Under the pieces are notes generated by a model. It did no database searches. It was not told the origin of the DNA and was given only the letters and a program-made list of their open reading frames with translations. From the IMG/VR virus record IMGVR_UViG_3300000357_000164: DNA of 10,359 bases; one strand, 5' to 3'. This document shows, piece by piece, positions 1,670-8,971 of this stretch (positions are counted from its first letter, which is position 1; the number at the start of each line of letters is the position of its first letter). Source of the DNA: a virus (taxonomy: Duplodnaviria; Heunggongvirae; Uroviricota; Caudoviricetes). The position numbers and the translations under genes were made by a program.

Positions 1670-2638
1670 CTAAATACGCACTTTAAGATAAGTCAGCCCC
1701 GGATGAAGCCAGTAAGCCGGCACTTTTTTAAAGGGTGGAGTATTAAAATCACGAAGAAGAGCCTCCCGCACAATTGCATCCTTATCAGCACCACTGGCCA
1801 GCGCTTCAATCTCAGCGGCTACCTGAAGATATNNNNNNNNNNNNNNNNNNNNNNNNNNNNNNNNNNNNNNNNNNNNNNNNNNNNNNNNNNNNNNNNNNNN
1901 NNNNNNNNNNNNNNNNNNNNNNNNNNNNNNNNNNNNNNNNNNNNNNNNNNNNNNNNNNNNNNNNNNNNNNNNNNNNNNNNNNNNNNNNNNNNNNNNNNNN
2001 NNNNNNNNNNNNNNNNNNNNNNNNNNNNNNNNTGAGATGGTTATTTTCCCAGCATCACCGGATACAACAAAGGATGGCCGGTTACACTCCCATTCCGGGT
2101 CACTGAAATTATCATTATGAATACTGAAACACTCTGCGAGATTTCTGCTCATCACTTTCCGACAATAATCGTCAAACGCAGCAAACTGCTTTTCATCGCC
2201 AGAAGGCACCAATATCGACCATTTCTTATTCAGCTCAACGACGTAGCTCTCCAGTTTTTCAATACGTGATTCAACATCATCTTTTTCTGACCGCAGTGTT
2301 GACGGCGGCATCTTCAGAGAACAAGTAATTCTTCCCGGTAGCTTTCCTTTGTAGGTTATCAACACATCCTGCGCCTCTAAAATTACGGGGCGCTTTTCCG
2401 GCAACGGTTCGTTCCATTCACATAACCCGGCAGCAACATCCATGAAAAACTGCTTCGCCTGCTTTTTCGCCTCAGCTTCGTAAAACTCCAGCGTGGCACC
2501 TTCAGTACGGTCAAGACTAATCGCCACATCTGGCAACAACAGCGACGCTTGCCCGTCACCTTCCGACTTCACAGTAACAGTAACCTTATCCCCGTAATTA
2601 TTTATCCCCTTAACAACCAGTTCATATTTTTTATTCAT
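1670..2638 (-). CDS. hypothetical protein (~322 aa) inserted between holin and endolysin; no recognisable family from sequence alone
   Basis: Long minus-strand ORF starting at ATG 2638 (the track starts at the in-frame GTG 2641). An SD (GGGGAGAG) lies inside the 3' end of the holin gene, and the holin stop TAA (2643-2645) is 4 nt from this ATG. Soluble-looking protein with a coiled-coil-like stretch (RSEKDDVESRIEKLESYVVELNKKW). The interior 1833-2032 is masked (200 N), so continuity of the N-terminal 200 aa with the C-terminal 54 aa is unproven. Stop TAG at 1670-1672, 36 nt before the endolysin ATG. Confidence 0.6.
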   Translation of the reverse strand: MNKKYELVVKGINNYGDKVTVTVKSEGDGQASLLLPDVAISLDRTEGATLEFYEAEAKKQAKQFFMDVAAGLCEWNEPLPEKRPVILEAQDVLITYKGKLPGRITCSLKMPPSTLRSEKDDVESRIEKLESYVVELNKKWSILVPSGDEKQFAAFDDYCRKVMSRNLAECFSIHNDNFSDPEWECNRPSFVVSGDAGKITISXXXXXXXXXXXXXXXXXXXXXXXXXXXXXXXXXXXXXXXXXXXXXXXXXXXXXXXXXXXXXXXXXXXYLQVAAEIEALASGADKDAIVREALLRDFNTPPFKKVPAYWLHPGLTYLKVRI

Positions 2639-2642
2639 CACT

Positions 2643-2858
2643 TTACTCTCCCCGCGCCGCCTTACGCCGGTCCTCTTTGATTTTGAAATACAGGTTAGTC
2701 AGGTACGTCAGCAGCCCAAACAGCAGACTCCCCAGCACGCCTATTGCCGCCCACTGAGACGGGGAAACCCTGTCCAGCAACTGCAGGAACCAGTAGCCCG
2801 TTCCCACCGCTGACGTGGTGTATGACACACCTGTTGTGATTTTTTCCATCTGGTACAT
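2643..2858 (-). CDS. S: pinholin, S21-family class II holin with dual-start motif (Met1/Met4)
   Basis: 71-aa product [71 protein letters not shown]; two TMDs and a charged C-terminus. Strong resemblance to phage 21 S21 as recalled (...[51 protein letters not shown]). SD GGGAG upstream of ATG 2858. Pairs functionally with the SAR endolysin downstream. Confidence 0.9.
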
Positions 2859-2934
2859 ACCCCGTCTCCCGTTATCCGGAAGCTCACAACAATATAAAGA
2901 CCACCGGCACACACCGATGGTCCCTTGCGCAGGC

Positions 2935-3180
2935 TTACATCATCATGTCGCTGTCAGGTGTGGGTTCACCGCCATCTGAAGCACTCCCGTCACCCGCGAT
3001 ACCTTCCGGCTCCGGAACCGCTGGTACGCCCAGCAGCTCATCCAGAATGGCATCCACTTCTGCATCAAGACGCGACTCAAGGTTCTGGCGGAGTTTCTGT
3101 TTCAGTGCGCTCAGGACTTCTTCAGAGCGCAGGACTTCCTTCACTGCCTCAGCAGTGACCAGGGATGTGATTTCTGACAT
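2935..3180 (-). CDS. small acidic protein (81 aa), function unknown
   Basis: [84 protein letters not shown]: helical N-terminal half, strongly acidic Pro/Gly/Asp-rich tail. The overlapping plus-strand ORFs have Ser/Arg/Pro-rich shadow-like composition, supporting the minus frame. The SD is weak. Confidence 0.45.
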
Positions 3181-3315
3181 GGGATTTTCTCGTTGAAAGG
3201 TGTTGTCAAGAAAGTGACTACGGAATNNNNNNNNNNNNNNNNNNNNNNNNNNNNNNNNNNNNNNNNNNNNNNNNNNNNNNNNNNNNNNNNNNNNNNNNNN
3301 NNNNNNNNNNNNNNN

Positions 3316-3479
3316 TCGGGTTTGCTTCCGGCTGACTGACTGGCGCTGATTCTCTCAGCGGCCCTTTTATCAATCTGCCTGCGCCAGAAATCGCGCACTG
3401 CCCTGTACCCACCCGAAAGAAGATACATAACACAGACTGCCATACAGAAGTACAGCATTACCTGATGAATAAATGTCAT
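3316..3479 (-). CDS. small membrane protein, 3' end lost in masked block (partial)
   Basis: ATG at 3479. N-terminus MTFIHQVMLYFCMAVCVMYLLSGGYRAVRDFWRRQIDKRAAERISASQSAGSKP has one TM helix followed by a basic segment. The ORF runs into the N block 3227-3315, so the true stop is unknown; the in-frame continuation after the block overlaps the acidic ORF and is probably not real. Confidence 0.4.
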
Positions 3480-3577
3480 AATTTCTTACCGTTATGGTTG
3501 ACAATGAGAACTGTTTTCATTTAGAAATGATTGATGTCGAAAGCATCTTTTCTTTACATTCTCCATTGGGATTACCT

Positions 3578-3615
3578 CCGCCAGCTTCCATTCCTGCCGC
3601 TGGCGGCTTTTTTTA
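3578..3615 (+). terminator. intrinsic terminator-like hairpin oriented for plus-strand transcription
   Basis: Perfect 8-bp stem CCGCCAGC (3578-3585) / GCTGGCGG (3599-3606) with a 13-nt loop, followed on the plus strand by CTTTTTTTA. On the minus strand the hairpin is preceded, not followed, by the A/T run, so it is unidirectional (plus). It sits immediately 3' of the nanS-p stop. Confidence 0.5.
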
Positions 3616-5745
3616 TCATGCCGCGATGTCCGCGTTGTTCACTTCCACCTTCACACTGTCAATCAGCAGCGTATATGTCGCCGCCTTTGATATGCCTGTC
3701 AGTTGCAGTTTGTCCGCCGCCCCTGATGCCGGAGATTTCACCAGTGTGAACGGCGTCCCCCGTTTCTCATCCAGTACCGGCGTCACCTGAATGCTGTTGT
3801 TTCCGGCAAACTCAAAAGCCAGTGTGTGCCATCCGTTATCAAAGACCCCGAACGTTTCCAGCTTCGCATTCGGCTTCTTGTGGTGCATCGCGTTCAGGTT
3901 CGTCGCATCCGTCTGCAGAAAGAAGGACATCAGCATGTCGTTGCCTTCCTCTGCCAGCGTCACTCCCTCNNNNNNNNNNNNNNNNNNNNNNNNNNNNNNN
4001 NNNNNNNNNNNNNNNNNNNNNNNNNNNNNNNNNNNNNNNNNNNNNNNNNNNNNNNNNNNNNNAACTGCCAGTAAATGCCCAGGGCAAACTGATTCGGCAC
4101 CAGTGAACCCGGCAACTTAAACCGTACGCTCACACGTCCCCCCTTCTTCAGTAACTCCACTCCCTGTCCGGCTGCATCATGCTCCAGAAACCAGATGTGG
4201 TTTTCCGGTTTATTCAGTTGCAGGGCCTTACCTCCCGTAGCCCCCGCATCACTGACCACCGCTTCAGCAATGTTTTTGTTAACATTGTCTCCGCTCGCCG
4301 GTTTGTGATAATAGCGCCAGCCCTGTGATGCCAGGTCTTCGCCGGACGCCAGCAGACTCATCAGGGTTCGGTTACTGACCGGGGCTTCCGGCTCTCTCTC
4401 CGTACCTTCACCGGAAGGTCCGGTGGGCTTCACCGTATCAGGCTGTTTTCCGGTAATGAATTCAGCGTTTCTCCCGGCATGCACAAGAATCGCCGTTGCC
4501 AGACGGTCGGAAATAATCCCACGACGTGCCCATGATCCAAAATGCGTTTTACGGTCAGCCGTCGTCCAGGTTTTGGCGTCCGTTCGACCACCGGCTCCGT
4601 AATACCCAATATCCGCAACATCCGGATCTTCTGACGGCTCGTTGGTACCCACATTTCGCCCGTTTTCATCCGTCATAAACGGCACAAAGAAGNNNNNNNN
4701 NNNNNNNNNNNNNNNNNNNNNNNNNNNNNNNNNNNNNNNNNNNNNNNNNNNNNNNNNNNNNNNNNNNNNNNNNNNNNNNNNNNNNNNNNNNTGCGGATTT
4801 CGTCTTGTATGCACCATACACCGCATCGTATTGCGAAGAATAAGTCTGCTTCCAGTAGTAGGTCGTGTCGCCACAAATCCAGGGAACCGATGACGGAGAG
4901 CCCCCGAGACACTGACCTCCGAATTCCGACAGGTCAGAACGATATTTTTCCACCATGGAATCAAACAGCCCCGGCTGGGTGGCGTATGCACCCTGTTTCA
5001 AATCAAACTCGCCCTGCATCCAGACCACTGCAAGCAGAATATTTTTAGGGTTGGCCTTCAGTGCGGCCTGAGTACGGGTAAGCAGGTCCTTGTACAGTGG
5101 CTTATCTACACCCCAGCGTGCCGAGGTCTCGCTTGCGCCGGTGGATTCGCTGAAGGTACCTTCATCGCCCGCCAAAAATGCAGAACCACCACGGCAGCAC
5201 GGAACCAGAAGAATACCGGCATTCGCCGGAATAAACGGCAACAATTTCTTCGCGATATGTAATCCCTGCCCCACGCATCCATACTGAGCTGCACTGGCTT
5301 TCGGGTGTGAAAACTTACTCAAATCCTGAACATCATGCAGGCAGTGGTCCGCAGGAATAATGTCATTGTAGTTACAGAACGCACCACCCGGCGTGACAGT
5401 GCTGCGACGCGCCAGCTGTTTAATACGCGGGTCCGGACGGTCATATGTCTCCGGCAGCGGAAGCCCTTCACCATACGCCATACCGTTTGACTGCCCGGCC
5501 AGGGCAACAACAAAGTAATACTCCGGGTTGCTGGTGGTGCTGATAACTGCGCCTTCTCCATCCGACGGCTTCACCACCACAGGTGTGGTGACATCACCTT
5601 CCGCCGCAATGGCCTGCATCAGGGTATAAGGCGTGATGGCCACCGGACTGCCAAATGGCTGCCACCCCTCCTTCAGTTTTTGTGTCAGTCGTTTCGCAAG
5701 GTCTGACGGCGATGCCGCCCTGACAACATCATAGTGTTTAAATGC
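3616..5745 (-). CDS. nanS-p: NanS-p-type phage sialate 9-O-acetylesterase (SASA/DUF303 esterase domain with C-terminal lectin-like region), interrupted by masked blocks
   Basis: Large minus-strand coding region with the SASA esterase GQSN motif (VALAGQSNGMAYGEG) and surrounding similarity to prophage NanS-p/YjhS-like esterases as recalled. The N-terminal part (AFKHYDVVRAASPSDLAKRLTQKLKEGWQPFGSPVA) resembles the DUF1737 region. The start lies inside N block 5746-5849. The coding frame differs on each side of N blocks 4693-4791 and 3970-4062 (three track ORFs: 4666..5964, 3960..4991, 3616..3963). Stop TGA at 3616-3618. Confidence 0.8.
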
Positions 5746-6017
5746 NNNNNNNNNNNNNNNNNNNNNNNNNNNNNNNNNNNNNNNNNNNNNNNNNNNNNNN
5801 NNNNNNNNNNNNNNNNNNNNNNNNNNNNNNNNNNNNNNNNNNNNNNNNNATTCTTTAAAATACCTGACATGTAATACAGAAAAAACACAAAACCATACCT
5901 TAAATAAAAACCTCATCATCAAGCAGATATGCATGGATAAACTACAAGACGAGATATAAACCACCCTGCATTTAAATAAACAATAAACAACATCAGAAAA
6001 ATAATTCTGCTCTATGG

Positions 6018-6245: not shown

Positions 6246-6475
6246 NNNNNNNNNNNNNNNNNNNNNNNNNNNNNNNNNNNNNNNNNNNNNNNNNNNNNNN
6301 NNNNNNNNNNNNNNNNNNNNNNNNNNNNNNNNNNNNTGCTACCTGTAACCATTTACAACGTAGCACCATTCAATAAAACATTCTGGAATTTAATCAAAAA
6401 CAGCCAGGAATGTCCTACAAATACAGATAACGTATTGAATGAATGCTTTAATAACCGTTGCACTCTGCAAATATG

Positions 6476-6562: not shown

Positions 6563-6883
6563 GAGAGTGGCGCTATGTGCCATTGCATGGTGCCGGGTGC
6601 CTCCCGGTGAATTCAGTACCAGCACCTGAATCCGCGATTATCCCATATACCTACTCGCTGATTGCCCCTCCGCACNNNNNNNNNNNNNNNNNNNNNNNNN
6701 NNNNNNNNNNNNNNNNNNNNNNNNNNNNNNNNNNNNNNNNNNNNNNNNNNNNNNNNNNNNNNNNNNNNNNNNNNNNNNNNNNNNNNNNNNNNNNNNNNNN
6801 NNNNNNNNCCCCGCAAACCAGACAACAGTCAACCGCCTGAATTGTGAAGTATTTAAAAATTTCTCCCGCTAACTGATACCCGG

Positions 6884-7517: not shown

Positions 7518-7591
7518 CGCGCTGTACTGGATTCGAACCAGTGACCGATTGCTTAGAAGGCAATTGCTCTGTCCGGCTGAGCTAACAACGC
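7518..7591 (-). tRNA. tRNA-Arg (anticodon UCU), phage-borne; 3' CCA not encoded
   Basis: Minus-strand sequence GCGTTGTTAGCTCAGCCGGACAGAGCAATTGCCTTCTAAGCAATCGGTCACTGGTTCGAATCCAGTACAGCGCG folds as a cloverleaf: 7-bp acceptor stem with one G-U, D arm GCTC/GAGC, anticodon loop CTTCTAA, T arm with GGTTCGAATCC. It resembles E. coli argU-type tRNA. The discriminator is followed by CTA rather than CCA. Confidence 0.85.
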
Positions 7592-7691: not shown

Positions 7692-7767
7692 TGGTGGCCC
7701 TTGCTGGATTTGAACCAGCGACCTGGCGATTATGAGTCGCTCGCTCTCACCACTGAGCTAAAGGGCC
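7692..7767 (-). tRNA. tRNA-Ile2-like (anticodon CAU, ileX/ileZ-type; could formally be Met)
   Basis: Minus-strand sequence GGCCCTTTAGCTCAGTGGTGAGAGCGAGCGACTCATAATCGCCAGGTCGCTGGTTCAAATCCAGCAAGGGCCACCA (76 nt, CCA encoded) is near-identical in architecture to E. coli ileX tRNA as recalled. Anticodon loop CTCATAA. Confidence 0.88.
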
Positions 7768-7883
7768 GGGAGCAGAATAATAACNNNNNNNNNNNNNNNN
7801 NNNNNNNNNNNNNNNNNNNNNNNNNNNNNNNNNNNNNNNNNNNNNNNNNNNNNNNNNNNNNNNNNNNNNNNNNATTAATTCCG

Positions 7884-7991: not shown

Positions 7992-8971
7992 TTACCTAGT
8001 TACCTTTTTTAACTGCCGCTCAGCCCATGCTTCTTCAATATCAAACCGGGTCACCAGCGCATCATAGAATTTCTTAACTGTTTTTTCCCATGACGCGCGT
8101 GTTATCTGGTTTGTCACCTCGCATATAGCATTAAATGCCTCCGTTGATGGTAGTCTTTCATAGCCACGACCACCACAACGCTGGCAGTCTCTGATAACAG
8201 GCATACCACGTTTTACCGACTCTTCACGATGAATGGCGACACCACGCCCACGGCAATCCTTACAGGCGGTGGAAACCTCACCCTTTCCGCCACACTCNNN
8301 NNNNNNNNNNNNNNNNNNNNNNNNNNNNNNNNNNNNNNNNNNNNNNNNNNNNNNNNNNNNNNNNNNNNNNNNNNNNNNNNNNNNNNNNNNNNNNNNNNNN
8401 NNNNNNNNNNNNNNNNNNNNNNNNNNNAAGACGAATACACACCTTTCGTACACTTTGCCCATACCGGCGGCTTACCATCCGGATACTGGACCTTGTTTGT
8501 AAAAACTACGCTTTCAATAAATTTTTCCCCATAGCAACAAGGGCACTGCTTTTTACTCGCTGCGCTGCGGGCATAATCCTCAAAAGCGTACGAAGCCATA
8601 ATGCGCATCACTACCGGTTTTATTTCTGCCGGAAGTTTTCTCAACGCCGCCACANNNNNNNNNNNNNNNNNNNNNNNNNNNNNNNNNNNNNNNNNNNNNN
8701 NNNNNNNNNNNNNNNNNNNNNNNNNNNNNNNNNNNNNNNNNNNNNNNNNNNNNNNNNNNNNNNNNNNNNNNGTTGCCCGCGCCCTGTCATTCATACTGAT
8801 GCCCATTTTCCCCAGGAACGCAGAAAAACCCATCTCAGCCCGATTCTGTGTCATGCCCTGCGCGGCCATCACATCAGTGATACTCAGCGCATCTTTTGAC
8901 GTTGAGGCCGATGCATCGGTCAGGCCAGGGGATTTTGGGGAGTAGTATTTCGGTAAATCTTCCAGTTTCAT
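7992..8971 (-). CDS. Q: late-gene antiterminator Q (lambda Q family), interrupted by two masked blocks with an apparent frame change
   Basis: N-terminus MKLEDLPKYYSPKSPGLTDASASTSKDALSITDVMAAQGMTQNRAEMGFSAFLGK parallels lambda Q (MRLESVAKFHSPKSPMMSDSPRATASDSLSGTDVMAAMGMAQSQ...). Mid-region MASYAFEDYARSAASKKQ matches LATFAYADYCRSAATPGA. The C-terminal part in a different frame (7992..8297: CKDCRGRGVAI...DCQRCGGRGYERLPS...WEKTVKKFYDALV...KKVTR) matches the lambda Q zinc-finger and C-terminus. ATG at 8971 with an AGG-containing SD. Confidence 0.8.

Follow-up and report, generated by a model that had tools for sequence, protein, structure and literature searches.

The window analysed here, a stretch of 10,359 nucleotides (nt) of viral DNA (Caudoviricetes; IMG/VR record IMGVR_UViG_3300000357_000164), carries two small genes between a nanS-p-type sialate O-acetylesterase gene and a phage holin gene, all four on the minus strand. 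Their products belong to DUF1378 and DUF826, families that are already catalogued, uncharacterised and common in Escherichia coli prophages, including Shiga toxin (Stx) phages. Patterns of substitution among related loci indicate that both are real, conserved protein-coding prophage genes, under purifying selection in their annotated frames only. As to function, we lean towards reading DUF1378 and DUF826 as the distal genes of an accessory (‘moron’) cassette that is headed by nanS-p and has its own terminator-like hairpin, with the pair acting at the membrane and standing apart from the lysis genes. The cassette and its borders are laid out as follows, in the direction of the minus-strand genes.

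3616..5964, minus strand: nanS-p-type sialate O-acetylesterase gene (DUF1737/SASA/DUF6645), the first gene of the trio
3540..3614, plus strand: small RNA (sRNA)-like element with its own terminator, antisense to the operon, with a weak Rfam Esr41 match
3218..3479, minus strand: DUF1378 gene, start at 3479 and TAG stop at 3218-3220; coordinates inflated by a padded run of Ns
2935..3180, minus strand: DUF826 gene, ATG start, 81 amino acids (aa)
2886..2925, minus strand: terminator-like hairpin and U-rich run, 10 nt past the DUF826 stop and 28 nt before the holin start
2643..2858, minus strand: class II (phage 21 S-type, S21) pinholin gene with dual start MYQM, from Pfam Phage_holin_2_1 and the annotation of an identical relative

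Gene models and masked blocks

Between positions 2600 and 3650, the window is identical to E. coli MCJCHV-1 and many complete genomes except at its runs of N. We placed the 25-base flanks of every N run in the MCJCHV-1 locus (L001, 100% identical). All of the placeable runs (10/10) exceed the true gap in that locus, by 76-97 bases. Because the runs are padded, the lengths and frames of open reading frames (ORFs) across any mask in the window are unreliable. The run that touches DUF1378, 3227-3315 (89 N), replaces just 10 bases, gagcggatct, and by this comparison it conceals no longer gene. A 112-aa ORF listed at 3141-3479 is an artefact, its frame having been shifted by the padded mask.

The original prediction, made from the letters of the window, had rightly started a membrane ORF at 3479 but had let it end in the masked block; the true stop is the TAG at 3218-3220. 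With the mask filled with the 10 bases of L001, the spliced product has 60 aa (MTFIHQVMLYFCMAVCVMYLLSGGYRAVRDFWRRQIDKRAAERISASQSAGSKPEDPLIP) and is identical to RefSeq WP_023143432.1, annotated ‘DUF1378 family protein’. Its 54 visible residues match Pfam PF07125 at 110 bits (cut-off 25, E 5e-32), and the spliced protein matches PHROG 494 (E 6e-37), which is filed under ‘unknown function’. The acidic ORF (2935-3180, 81 aa) is just as it had been described. It matches Pfam PF05696 at 149 bits (cut-off 25, E 4e-44) over model positions 1-75 of 75 and belongs to PHROG 311/8301, again of ‘unknown function’. It is 100% identical to RefSeq WP_001538590.1 of MCJCHV-1, a ‘DUF826 domain-containing protein’.

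Evidence for coding

Selection was assessed on a segment that begins 170 nt upstream of the DUF1378 gene and ends with the holin gene; 70 related loci supplied 47 distinct versions of it. The ratio of nonsynonymous to synonymous polymorphism (pN/pS) in the annotated frame is 0.23 for DUF1378 and 0.22 for DUF826, compared to 0.07 for the holin; in the two alternative frames it is 1.5-9.7. Variable sites in both genes fall mostly at third codon positions, and both ORFs are unbroken even in alleles that share only 40-50% identity. Within DUF826, pN/pS is 0.15 for residues 1-51 and 0.33 for the tail, the least constrained part of the protein.

Given these figures, we attach next to no credence to the idea that either ORF is non-coding and due to chance or to the shadow of another frame, although older annotations do conflict: VT2-Sakai has a single 139-aa orf43 that crosses the 3' end of DUF1378 out of frame into DUF826, and databases hold DUF826 variants of 127-141 aa. 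The N-terminal extensions of these long forms are shifted-frame translation of the 37-nt spacer plus the DUF1378 3' end. We thus treat orf43 and the ‘long DUF826’ entries as over-extended. DUF1378-DUF826 ‘fusions’ (P0078, P0224) were likewise set aside as Rosetta-stone evidence, being single or nearly single entries that look frameshifted or mis-started. Two findings had been named in advance as fatal to the original prediction, namely that the ORFs would prove unconserved or the acidic one a shadow of a gene hidden in the mask; the pN/pS values and the 10-base mask point the other way on both.

Architecture of the two proteins

Pfam, AlphaFold2 and the hydropathy and charge profiles all agree with the earlier description of one single-transmembrane (TM) protein with a basic tail and one helical protein with a disordered acidic tail. 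For DUF1378, hydropathy peaks at 1.96 from residue 3 (19-residue window), and a TM segment is predicted at about residues 4-25, followed by a basic helix (net charge +4 over residues 26-46). The AlphaFold2 model is a single continuous helix over residues 3-50, with a mean predicted local distance difference test score (pLDDT) of 74. Following the positive-inside rule, DUF1378 would span the inner membrane once (bitopic), exposing three N-terminal residues outside and keeping the basic helix inside. The TM sequence MLYFC..VC.LYLLSGGY is unusually conserved, being kept even between alleles that are about 50% identical.

DUF826, taken to be a cytoplasmic protein, has three parts. Its N-domain (residues 10-50) is helical, the tail that follows (52-78) is predicted to be disordered and is acidic and rich in Pro and Gly, and the tip, MMM, is hydrophobic. 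AlphaFold2 predicts a short helix at 10-17 and a long amphipathic helix at 20-50 (pLDDT 92-98 for 21-50), with pLDDT <50 and no secondary structure at 57-78. The whole protein has a net charge of -12 and an isoelectric point (pI) of about 4.05. The tail had been called almost entirely Asp/Glu/Pro/Gly. It is indeed acidic and of low complexity, but the composition was overstated: in residues 52-81 these four amino acids make up 17/30 (57%), or 80% with Ser, Thr and Ala, and the net charge is -7.

Residues 1-51 are near-invariant, and a motif in them (..VT.E.VK..L.S.EV...LK...R......D..VD..L..L.G) is common to distant members (P0223-P0253; alignments A1 and A2). The tail varies in length and sequence while staying acidic and rich in Pro, Gly, Ser and Thr, and the acidic segment ranges over roughly 25-50 residues among members. 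Nevertheless, 64 of the 86 full-length proteins end in a hydrophobic cluster (TML, MMM, MML, TMM, AMM, IML, TLL or LLL), distant Citrobacter members included. With its N-domain and tip conserved and its tail variable, DUF826 reads as two conserved elements, helical domain and tip, with a flexible acidic linker between them. Profile searches and a Foldseek search of the DUF826 model against the PDB returned only noise among solved structures. A single long helix offers no searchable fold.

Distribution and genomic company

The pair occurs in 1052 of 5426 complete E. coli genomes, in up to 8 copies per genome and nearly always with both genes. Among phage records, 346 match the 1051-base region; Stx1- and Stx2-converting phages, VT2-Sakai and VT1-Sakai included, make up most of these. 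It had been claimed that Stx phages have little at the nanS-p/S junction, S being the holin gene. This is incorrect: the same pair lies between nanS-p and S in VT2-Sakai, Stx1 phages, POCJ13, ArgO145, PA2 and others, and a study of the Q-S region of Stx2a phages reports ORFs with DUF826 or DUF1378 domains there (PMC10462455). As a family, DUF826 is very small: among 1.84 billion representative proteins, a profile search picked out 53 (E <= 0.001), from Escherichia/Shigella, Citrobacter, Salmonella and Pantoea. Scans of the GTDB species representatives with the DUF826 and DUF1378 alignments gave no confirmed locus, which we do not take as absence outside E. coli; the null probably reflects the strain-specific prophage content of the representatives and narrow search patterns.

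Two phage backgrounds carry the long-tailed pair. In lambdoid prophages, the order is esterase C-terminus, DUF1378, DUF826, S21 holin, (DUF1327) and lysozyme, as found in all 80 IMG/VR loci with a close DUF826 (80/80), one of them interrupted by an IS3-family insertion. The same order is present in E. coli A39, 319 (downstream of stx1) and DEC5B and in prophages of Citrobacter freundii and C. farmeri. The second background is a Mu-like phage that carries a diverged E. coli DUF826 subfamily (P0227, about 40% identical), found on >1000 contigs. Here the order runs from a tail-fibre assembly gene and a gin-type invertase through the SASA/DUF6645 esterase, DUF1378 and DUF826 to com, mom and the prophage end. 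All 37 loci of this kind (L087-L090, L103-L135) keep the trio between gin and com/mom, and in none of the 37 is there a holin within the fetched flanks. The trio stays intact in this set even though, compared to the reference locus (L089), the esterase is 51-100%, DUF1378 50-98% and DUF826 66-100% identical. Mu-like prophages are thus a second home of the nanS-p cassette, outside the lambdoid phages.

The converse arrangement is seen in prophage PP2 of E. coli E2348/69, which has the esterase, the PasA sRNA and the same holin type and lacks both DUF1378 and DUF826; the S21 holin cassette is therefore present there without the pair. Taken with the trio in the gin-mom context, this means that the long-tailed pair tracks the esterase and not the lysis genes. 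Its framing as a feature of the nanS-p/holin junction was therefore incidental, as the pair follows the esterase also where no holin is near.

Short forms of DUF826 (59-61 aa, with no long tail) occur in Salmonella and Pantoea (L091-L094, L097-L100), after Rz/Rz1 and without an esterase. No DUF1378 was called beside them, the upstream gap having been inspected directly only in L094. Given that the short forms have no DUF1378 call, the long tail and the hydrophobic tip co-occur with DUF1378. In the P0234-type Salmonella loci (L097-L099) and in Pantoea (L100), the short form adjoins a conserved block of three genes, which encode a 178-180-aa protein (sub-threshold MptE-like match), a 287-aa unknown protein and a Methyltransf_23 protein; the order of this block relative to DUF826 differs between Salmonella and Pantoea. 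In P0250-type Salmonella loci (L091-L094), a 192-aa signal-peptide protein lies downstream instead.

Transcription signals

The hairpin at 2886-2925 (minus strand) has a G+C-rich stem of 12-13 bp (13 pairs, 6 G-C) and a 4-nt loop, followed by UUUAUAUUGUUGU. Its fold energy is -24.6 kcal/mol (z -2.6). A hairpin with a T run also lies 3' of the DUF826 stop in five other loci (L003, L084, L085, the Mu-like L089 and L097) with differing stem sequences; the genomes with such a hairpin are VT2-Sakai, A39, strain 319, Mu-like L089 and Salmonella L097. E2348/69 has another, different hairpin just upstream of its holin. We regard the hairpin in the window as a putative terminator that would close the esterase/DUF1378/DUF826 unit. 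On induction it would be read through by Q-modified polymerase, and it could shield the holin from stray transcription in the lysogen. A second, small hairpin at about 2866-2882 (minus strand), ahead of the dual start MYQM of the holin, is conserved in lambdoid loci.

A scan of 2500-4000 found no sigma-70-like promoter for the pair. Late expression of the two genes, as originally proposed, is plausible from their position downstream of Q. This fits the rise of nanS-p mRNA by 1-2.4 log with mitomycin C (PMC10462455), itself consistent with Q-dependent late expression of the region.

Proposed function and its alternatives

From the observed identity, coding status, architecture, distribution and synteny of the two genes we infer a docking model. 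In lambdoid prophages the cassette, placed between Q and the S21-type pinholin, would be read late by Q-modified polymerase after induction. DUF1378 would insert so that its very short N-terminus lies outside and the basic helix reaches into the cytoplasm. This helix may dock the acidic tail and the hydrophobic C-terminal tip of DUF826, whose conserved helical N-domain would thereby come to lie against the inner face of the membrane and may there act on either the esterase or some membrane component of the host. Both proteins would stand outside the holin/endolysin/spanin machinery. Docking is supported by the DUF1378 helix (hydrophobic in its first part, +4 in its second) alongside the net charge of -12 of DUF826, by the TM sequence kept at about 50% allele identity, by the presence of the long tail and tip where DUF1378 is present and by the hydrophobic end of those 64 of 86 full-length DUF826 proteins.

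Several observations weigh against this reading. Identical DUF826 alleles occur with DUF1378 alleles of 98%, 81% and 51% identity, that is, the two genes recombine freely, which speaks against a tight, specific complex. With such variation in the partner, the contact must be limited to a few conserved residues, or else the linkage is mere adjacency. Moreover, the trio is not obligately coupled, as each gene can be present without the other two: the esterase occurs without the pair (E2348/69) and short DUF826 without the esterase. The predicted terminator of the window has an imperfect U run (CUUUAUAUUGUUGU). No ribosome-profiling, other expression or proteomic record of DUF1378 or DUF826 was found, and searching the literature by their former locus tags gave unrelated papers only.

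The first alternative is that the pair has an independent lysogenic-conversion or exclusion function, in which DUF1378 modulates a host inner-membrane protein and the link to the esterase comes from adjacency in a moron hot spot. The highly conserved TM sequence would suit it, as it suggests specific helix-helix contacts. So would the wealth of morons and sRNA genes in the region (stx, nanS-p, IraM, STnc100, AgvB, AsxR), the putative terminator of the pair's own and its variable presence among otherwise similar prophages. On the other hand, the scan of 2500-4000 gave no promoter-like site, and neither protein matches a PADLOC defence model at E up to 0.1. In addition, the trio with its esterase survives large divergence in two phage backgrounds, which is more than adjacency alone predicts. 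We therefore see this alternative as unlikely, while giving it some weight.

A role in lysis has less to recommend it. That is, the pair might tune or hold back the timing of S21 pinholin/SAR (signal-anchor-release)-endolysin lysis in the manner of RI and RIII of phage T4. In all lambdoid loci examined it sits directly upstream of S on the same late transcript, and in size and predicted compartment the two proteins resemble an antiholin pair such as RI/RIII. Yet in 37/37 loci the trio is placed between gin and com/mom, well away from any holin, so that its association with a holin is not constant, and E2348/69 has an S21 cassette that works while lacking the pair. Between DUF826 and S there is a terminator-like hairpin. 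Unlike RI, DUF1378 is predicted to have its soluble part in the cytoplasm. Pfam searches at E up to 0.1 returned DUF826, DUF1378 and sub-threshold noise, with no holin or antiholin family among the matches. Altogether, we hold a lysis-timing role to be quite improbable.

Equally doubtful is the fullest extension of the docking model, in which esterase, DUF1378 and DUF826 form one unit that tethers the signal-peptide-less NanS-p at the inner membrane, exports it without lysis or activates it there.

The original prediction had also likened DUF826 to nucleic-acid mimics or chaperone-like adaptors. That it should work in this way, by titrating DNA-binding proteins of the host, we judge very improbable: the net charge of -12, the pI of about 4 and the layout of a small helical domain with a tail would suit it, but the acidic part is predicted to be disordered, is Pro/Gly-rich, varies over about 25-50 residues and is the least constrained part of the protein, the late-operon position is too late for anti-restriction, and no family, fold or structure match was found (including none in NCBIfam for either protein).

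The sRNA-like element

Between the esterase stop (3616-3618) and the DUF1378 start lies an element on the plus strand (3540-3614) that ends in CCGCCAGC..GCTGGCGG and seven T's, the T run abutting the esterase stop codon. A possible -35 box, TTGACA (3498-3503), is found with TAGAAA at 3522-3527. The match of the element to Rfam Esr41 (RF02676) is full-length but weak, at 20.7 bits (E 0.06-0.28) against a gathering cut-off of 102. Membership of Esr41 was therefore rejected and the match is kept as a resemblance, and the element as such is absent from Rfam. It shares with Esr41 ACAUU-CUCCAU and the terminator. Esr41 itself is located on SpLE1 and not in a lambdoid prophage (PMC5286369).

PasC and PasA, two sRNAs of E2348/69, lie at the same place and are oriented alike, and the terminator of PasC, too, runs up against the stop codon of the esterase (placement from PMC8550237, table S6). 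There is no BLAST-level match between the element and PasA or PasC. PasA, PasC, Esr41 and the element have in common, however, a UACAU(U)CU.CC core and a GCCAGC..GCUGGC terminator with a U run. The element probably belongs to this sRNA group as an allele not yet catalogued. About 50 loci carry it at 97-100% identity, among them loci in which the esterase C-terminus is just 47% and DUF1378 88% identical; it thus forms a conserved island between diverged flanks.

The junction of E. coli O55:H7 DEC5B (L086) is a recombinant: it has an esterase fragment, DUF1378, a truncated DUF826, a second esterase C-terminal fragment, a copy of PasC (98.7%) and the holin. The 3' end of the esterase and the sRNA region are thus a recombination hot spot.

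Other features of the window

The remaining features, and the N runs whose length is not preserved, are as follows.

5' end of the minus-strand order, minus strand: RusA gene, then the antiterminator Q gene
7695-7767 and 7518-7591, minus strand: two tRNA genes, Arg and Ile in the identical relative
from 6085 onward, plus strand: IraM-like anti-adaptor gene, on the opposite strand to the late genes
1670-2641, minus strand: DUF1327-containing ORF, between holin and lysozyme
downstream of the DUF1327 ORF, minus strand: SAR-type lysozyme gene, then Rz
1833-2032, 3227-3315, 3970-4062, 4693-4791 and 5746-5849: N runs, length not preserved
6246-6336, 6676-6808, 7785-7873, 8298-8427 and 8655-8771: N runs, length not preserved

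The esterase gene is split into several listed ORFs solely by padded masks. Pfam DUF6645 is found on its C-terminal piece, and identical genomes have a SASA family carbohydrate esterase here. The upper boundary of 5964 is an artefactual start caused by the mask at 5746-5849, and the true start is lower. Within 4063-4692, the esterase of the window reads through (..VELLKKGGRVSVRFKL..) at the site where the otherwise identical copy of MCJCHV-1, a pseudogene by annotation, carries a frameshift; judged from this stretch, the window copy is probably intact.

In the interval from Q to the esterase, the window has the IraM-like gene and the two tRNAs where Stx phages carry stx. STnc100, AgvB and AsxR have no match in the window, in contrast to its Stx-phage relatives. 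Between holin and lysozyme, the DUF1327 (YdfR) ORF (1670-2641; 4149-5042 in L001) is intact, with an N-terminal DUF1327 domain and a C-terminal extension of about 200 aa, for a true length of 297 aa. RefSeq covers just its first 336 nt, as an ‘incomplete YdfR pseudogene’. A Salmonella prophage encodes, upstream of its holin, a 216-aa protein whose C-terminus is similar to that of this ORF.

Significance

NanS-p is thought to aid the growth of enterohaemorrhagic E. coli (EHEC) on the sialic acids of mucus. As it stands, the finding of the pair has little significance, since both families are annotated in thousands of genomes and have already been mentioned in the literature (PMC10462455). What is added is a corrected gene model for DUF1378, coding evidence for both genes and a domain-level description of DUF826, in which the N-domain hardly varies, the acidic linker does, the C-terminal tip is hydrophobic and short forms lack the tail. 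The junction is also seen to carry a conserved sRNA-like element and a putative terminator. That the pair tracks the esterase redirects functional tests from lysis timing to esterase biology or membrane targets. Were the pair to take part in delivering the esterase, this would hold moderate interest for the biology of Stx phages. If esterase and pair were indeed one unit, this would be an undescribed accessory system for phage-borne sialic-acid foraging, and it would explain why the trio is kept together in lambdoid and Mu-like prophages.

Comparison with known systems

The two window proteins are ordinary members of their families: DUF826 (PF05696; PHROG 311, 8301), where the protein is of the same length class, and DUF1378 (PF07125; PHROG 494), with no difference in either case. 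The closest genomic counterpart is the nanS-p cassette of Stx phages (933W L0105, VT2-Sakai orf42), with the same order of Q ... nanS-p, DUF1378, DUF826 and S. The window differs in lacking stx and in having the IraM-like gene and tRNAs upstream instead. The published account of this region (PMC10462455) makes no mention of the link between pair and esterase outside lambdoid phages, in the gin-mom context.

Looking beyond direct relatives, three kinds of known protein invite comparison. The RI/RIII antiholin pair of T4 consists of a small membrane-anchored protein and a small cytoplasmic helical protein, both phage-encoded. By analogy, DUF1378 and DUF826 would be the same types of protein, next to a holin in lambdoid prophages. 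However, no relation in sequence came up, DUF1378 is predicted to keep its soluble part in the cytoplasm and not the periplasm, and DUF1378 and DUF826 also occur remote from any holin. Known DNA mimics (of the Ocr and ArdA type) present a folded acidic surface. DUF826 is predicted to lack one, its residues 57-78 being variable and modelled with pLDDT <50.

A third likeness bears on the tip of DUF826. E. coli SSB and T7 gp2.5 have acidic, disordered tails with a hydrophobic tip. The layout of DUF826 is analogous, with a folded domain, a variable, flexible acidic linker and a conserved hydrophobic C-terminal cluster that may serve as a docking peptide. It differs from both in having a helical N-domain with neither an oligonucleotide-binding (OB) fold nor homology to them, and a tip of Met/Leu and not Pro-Phe.

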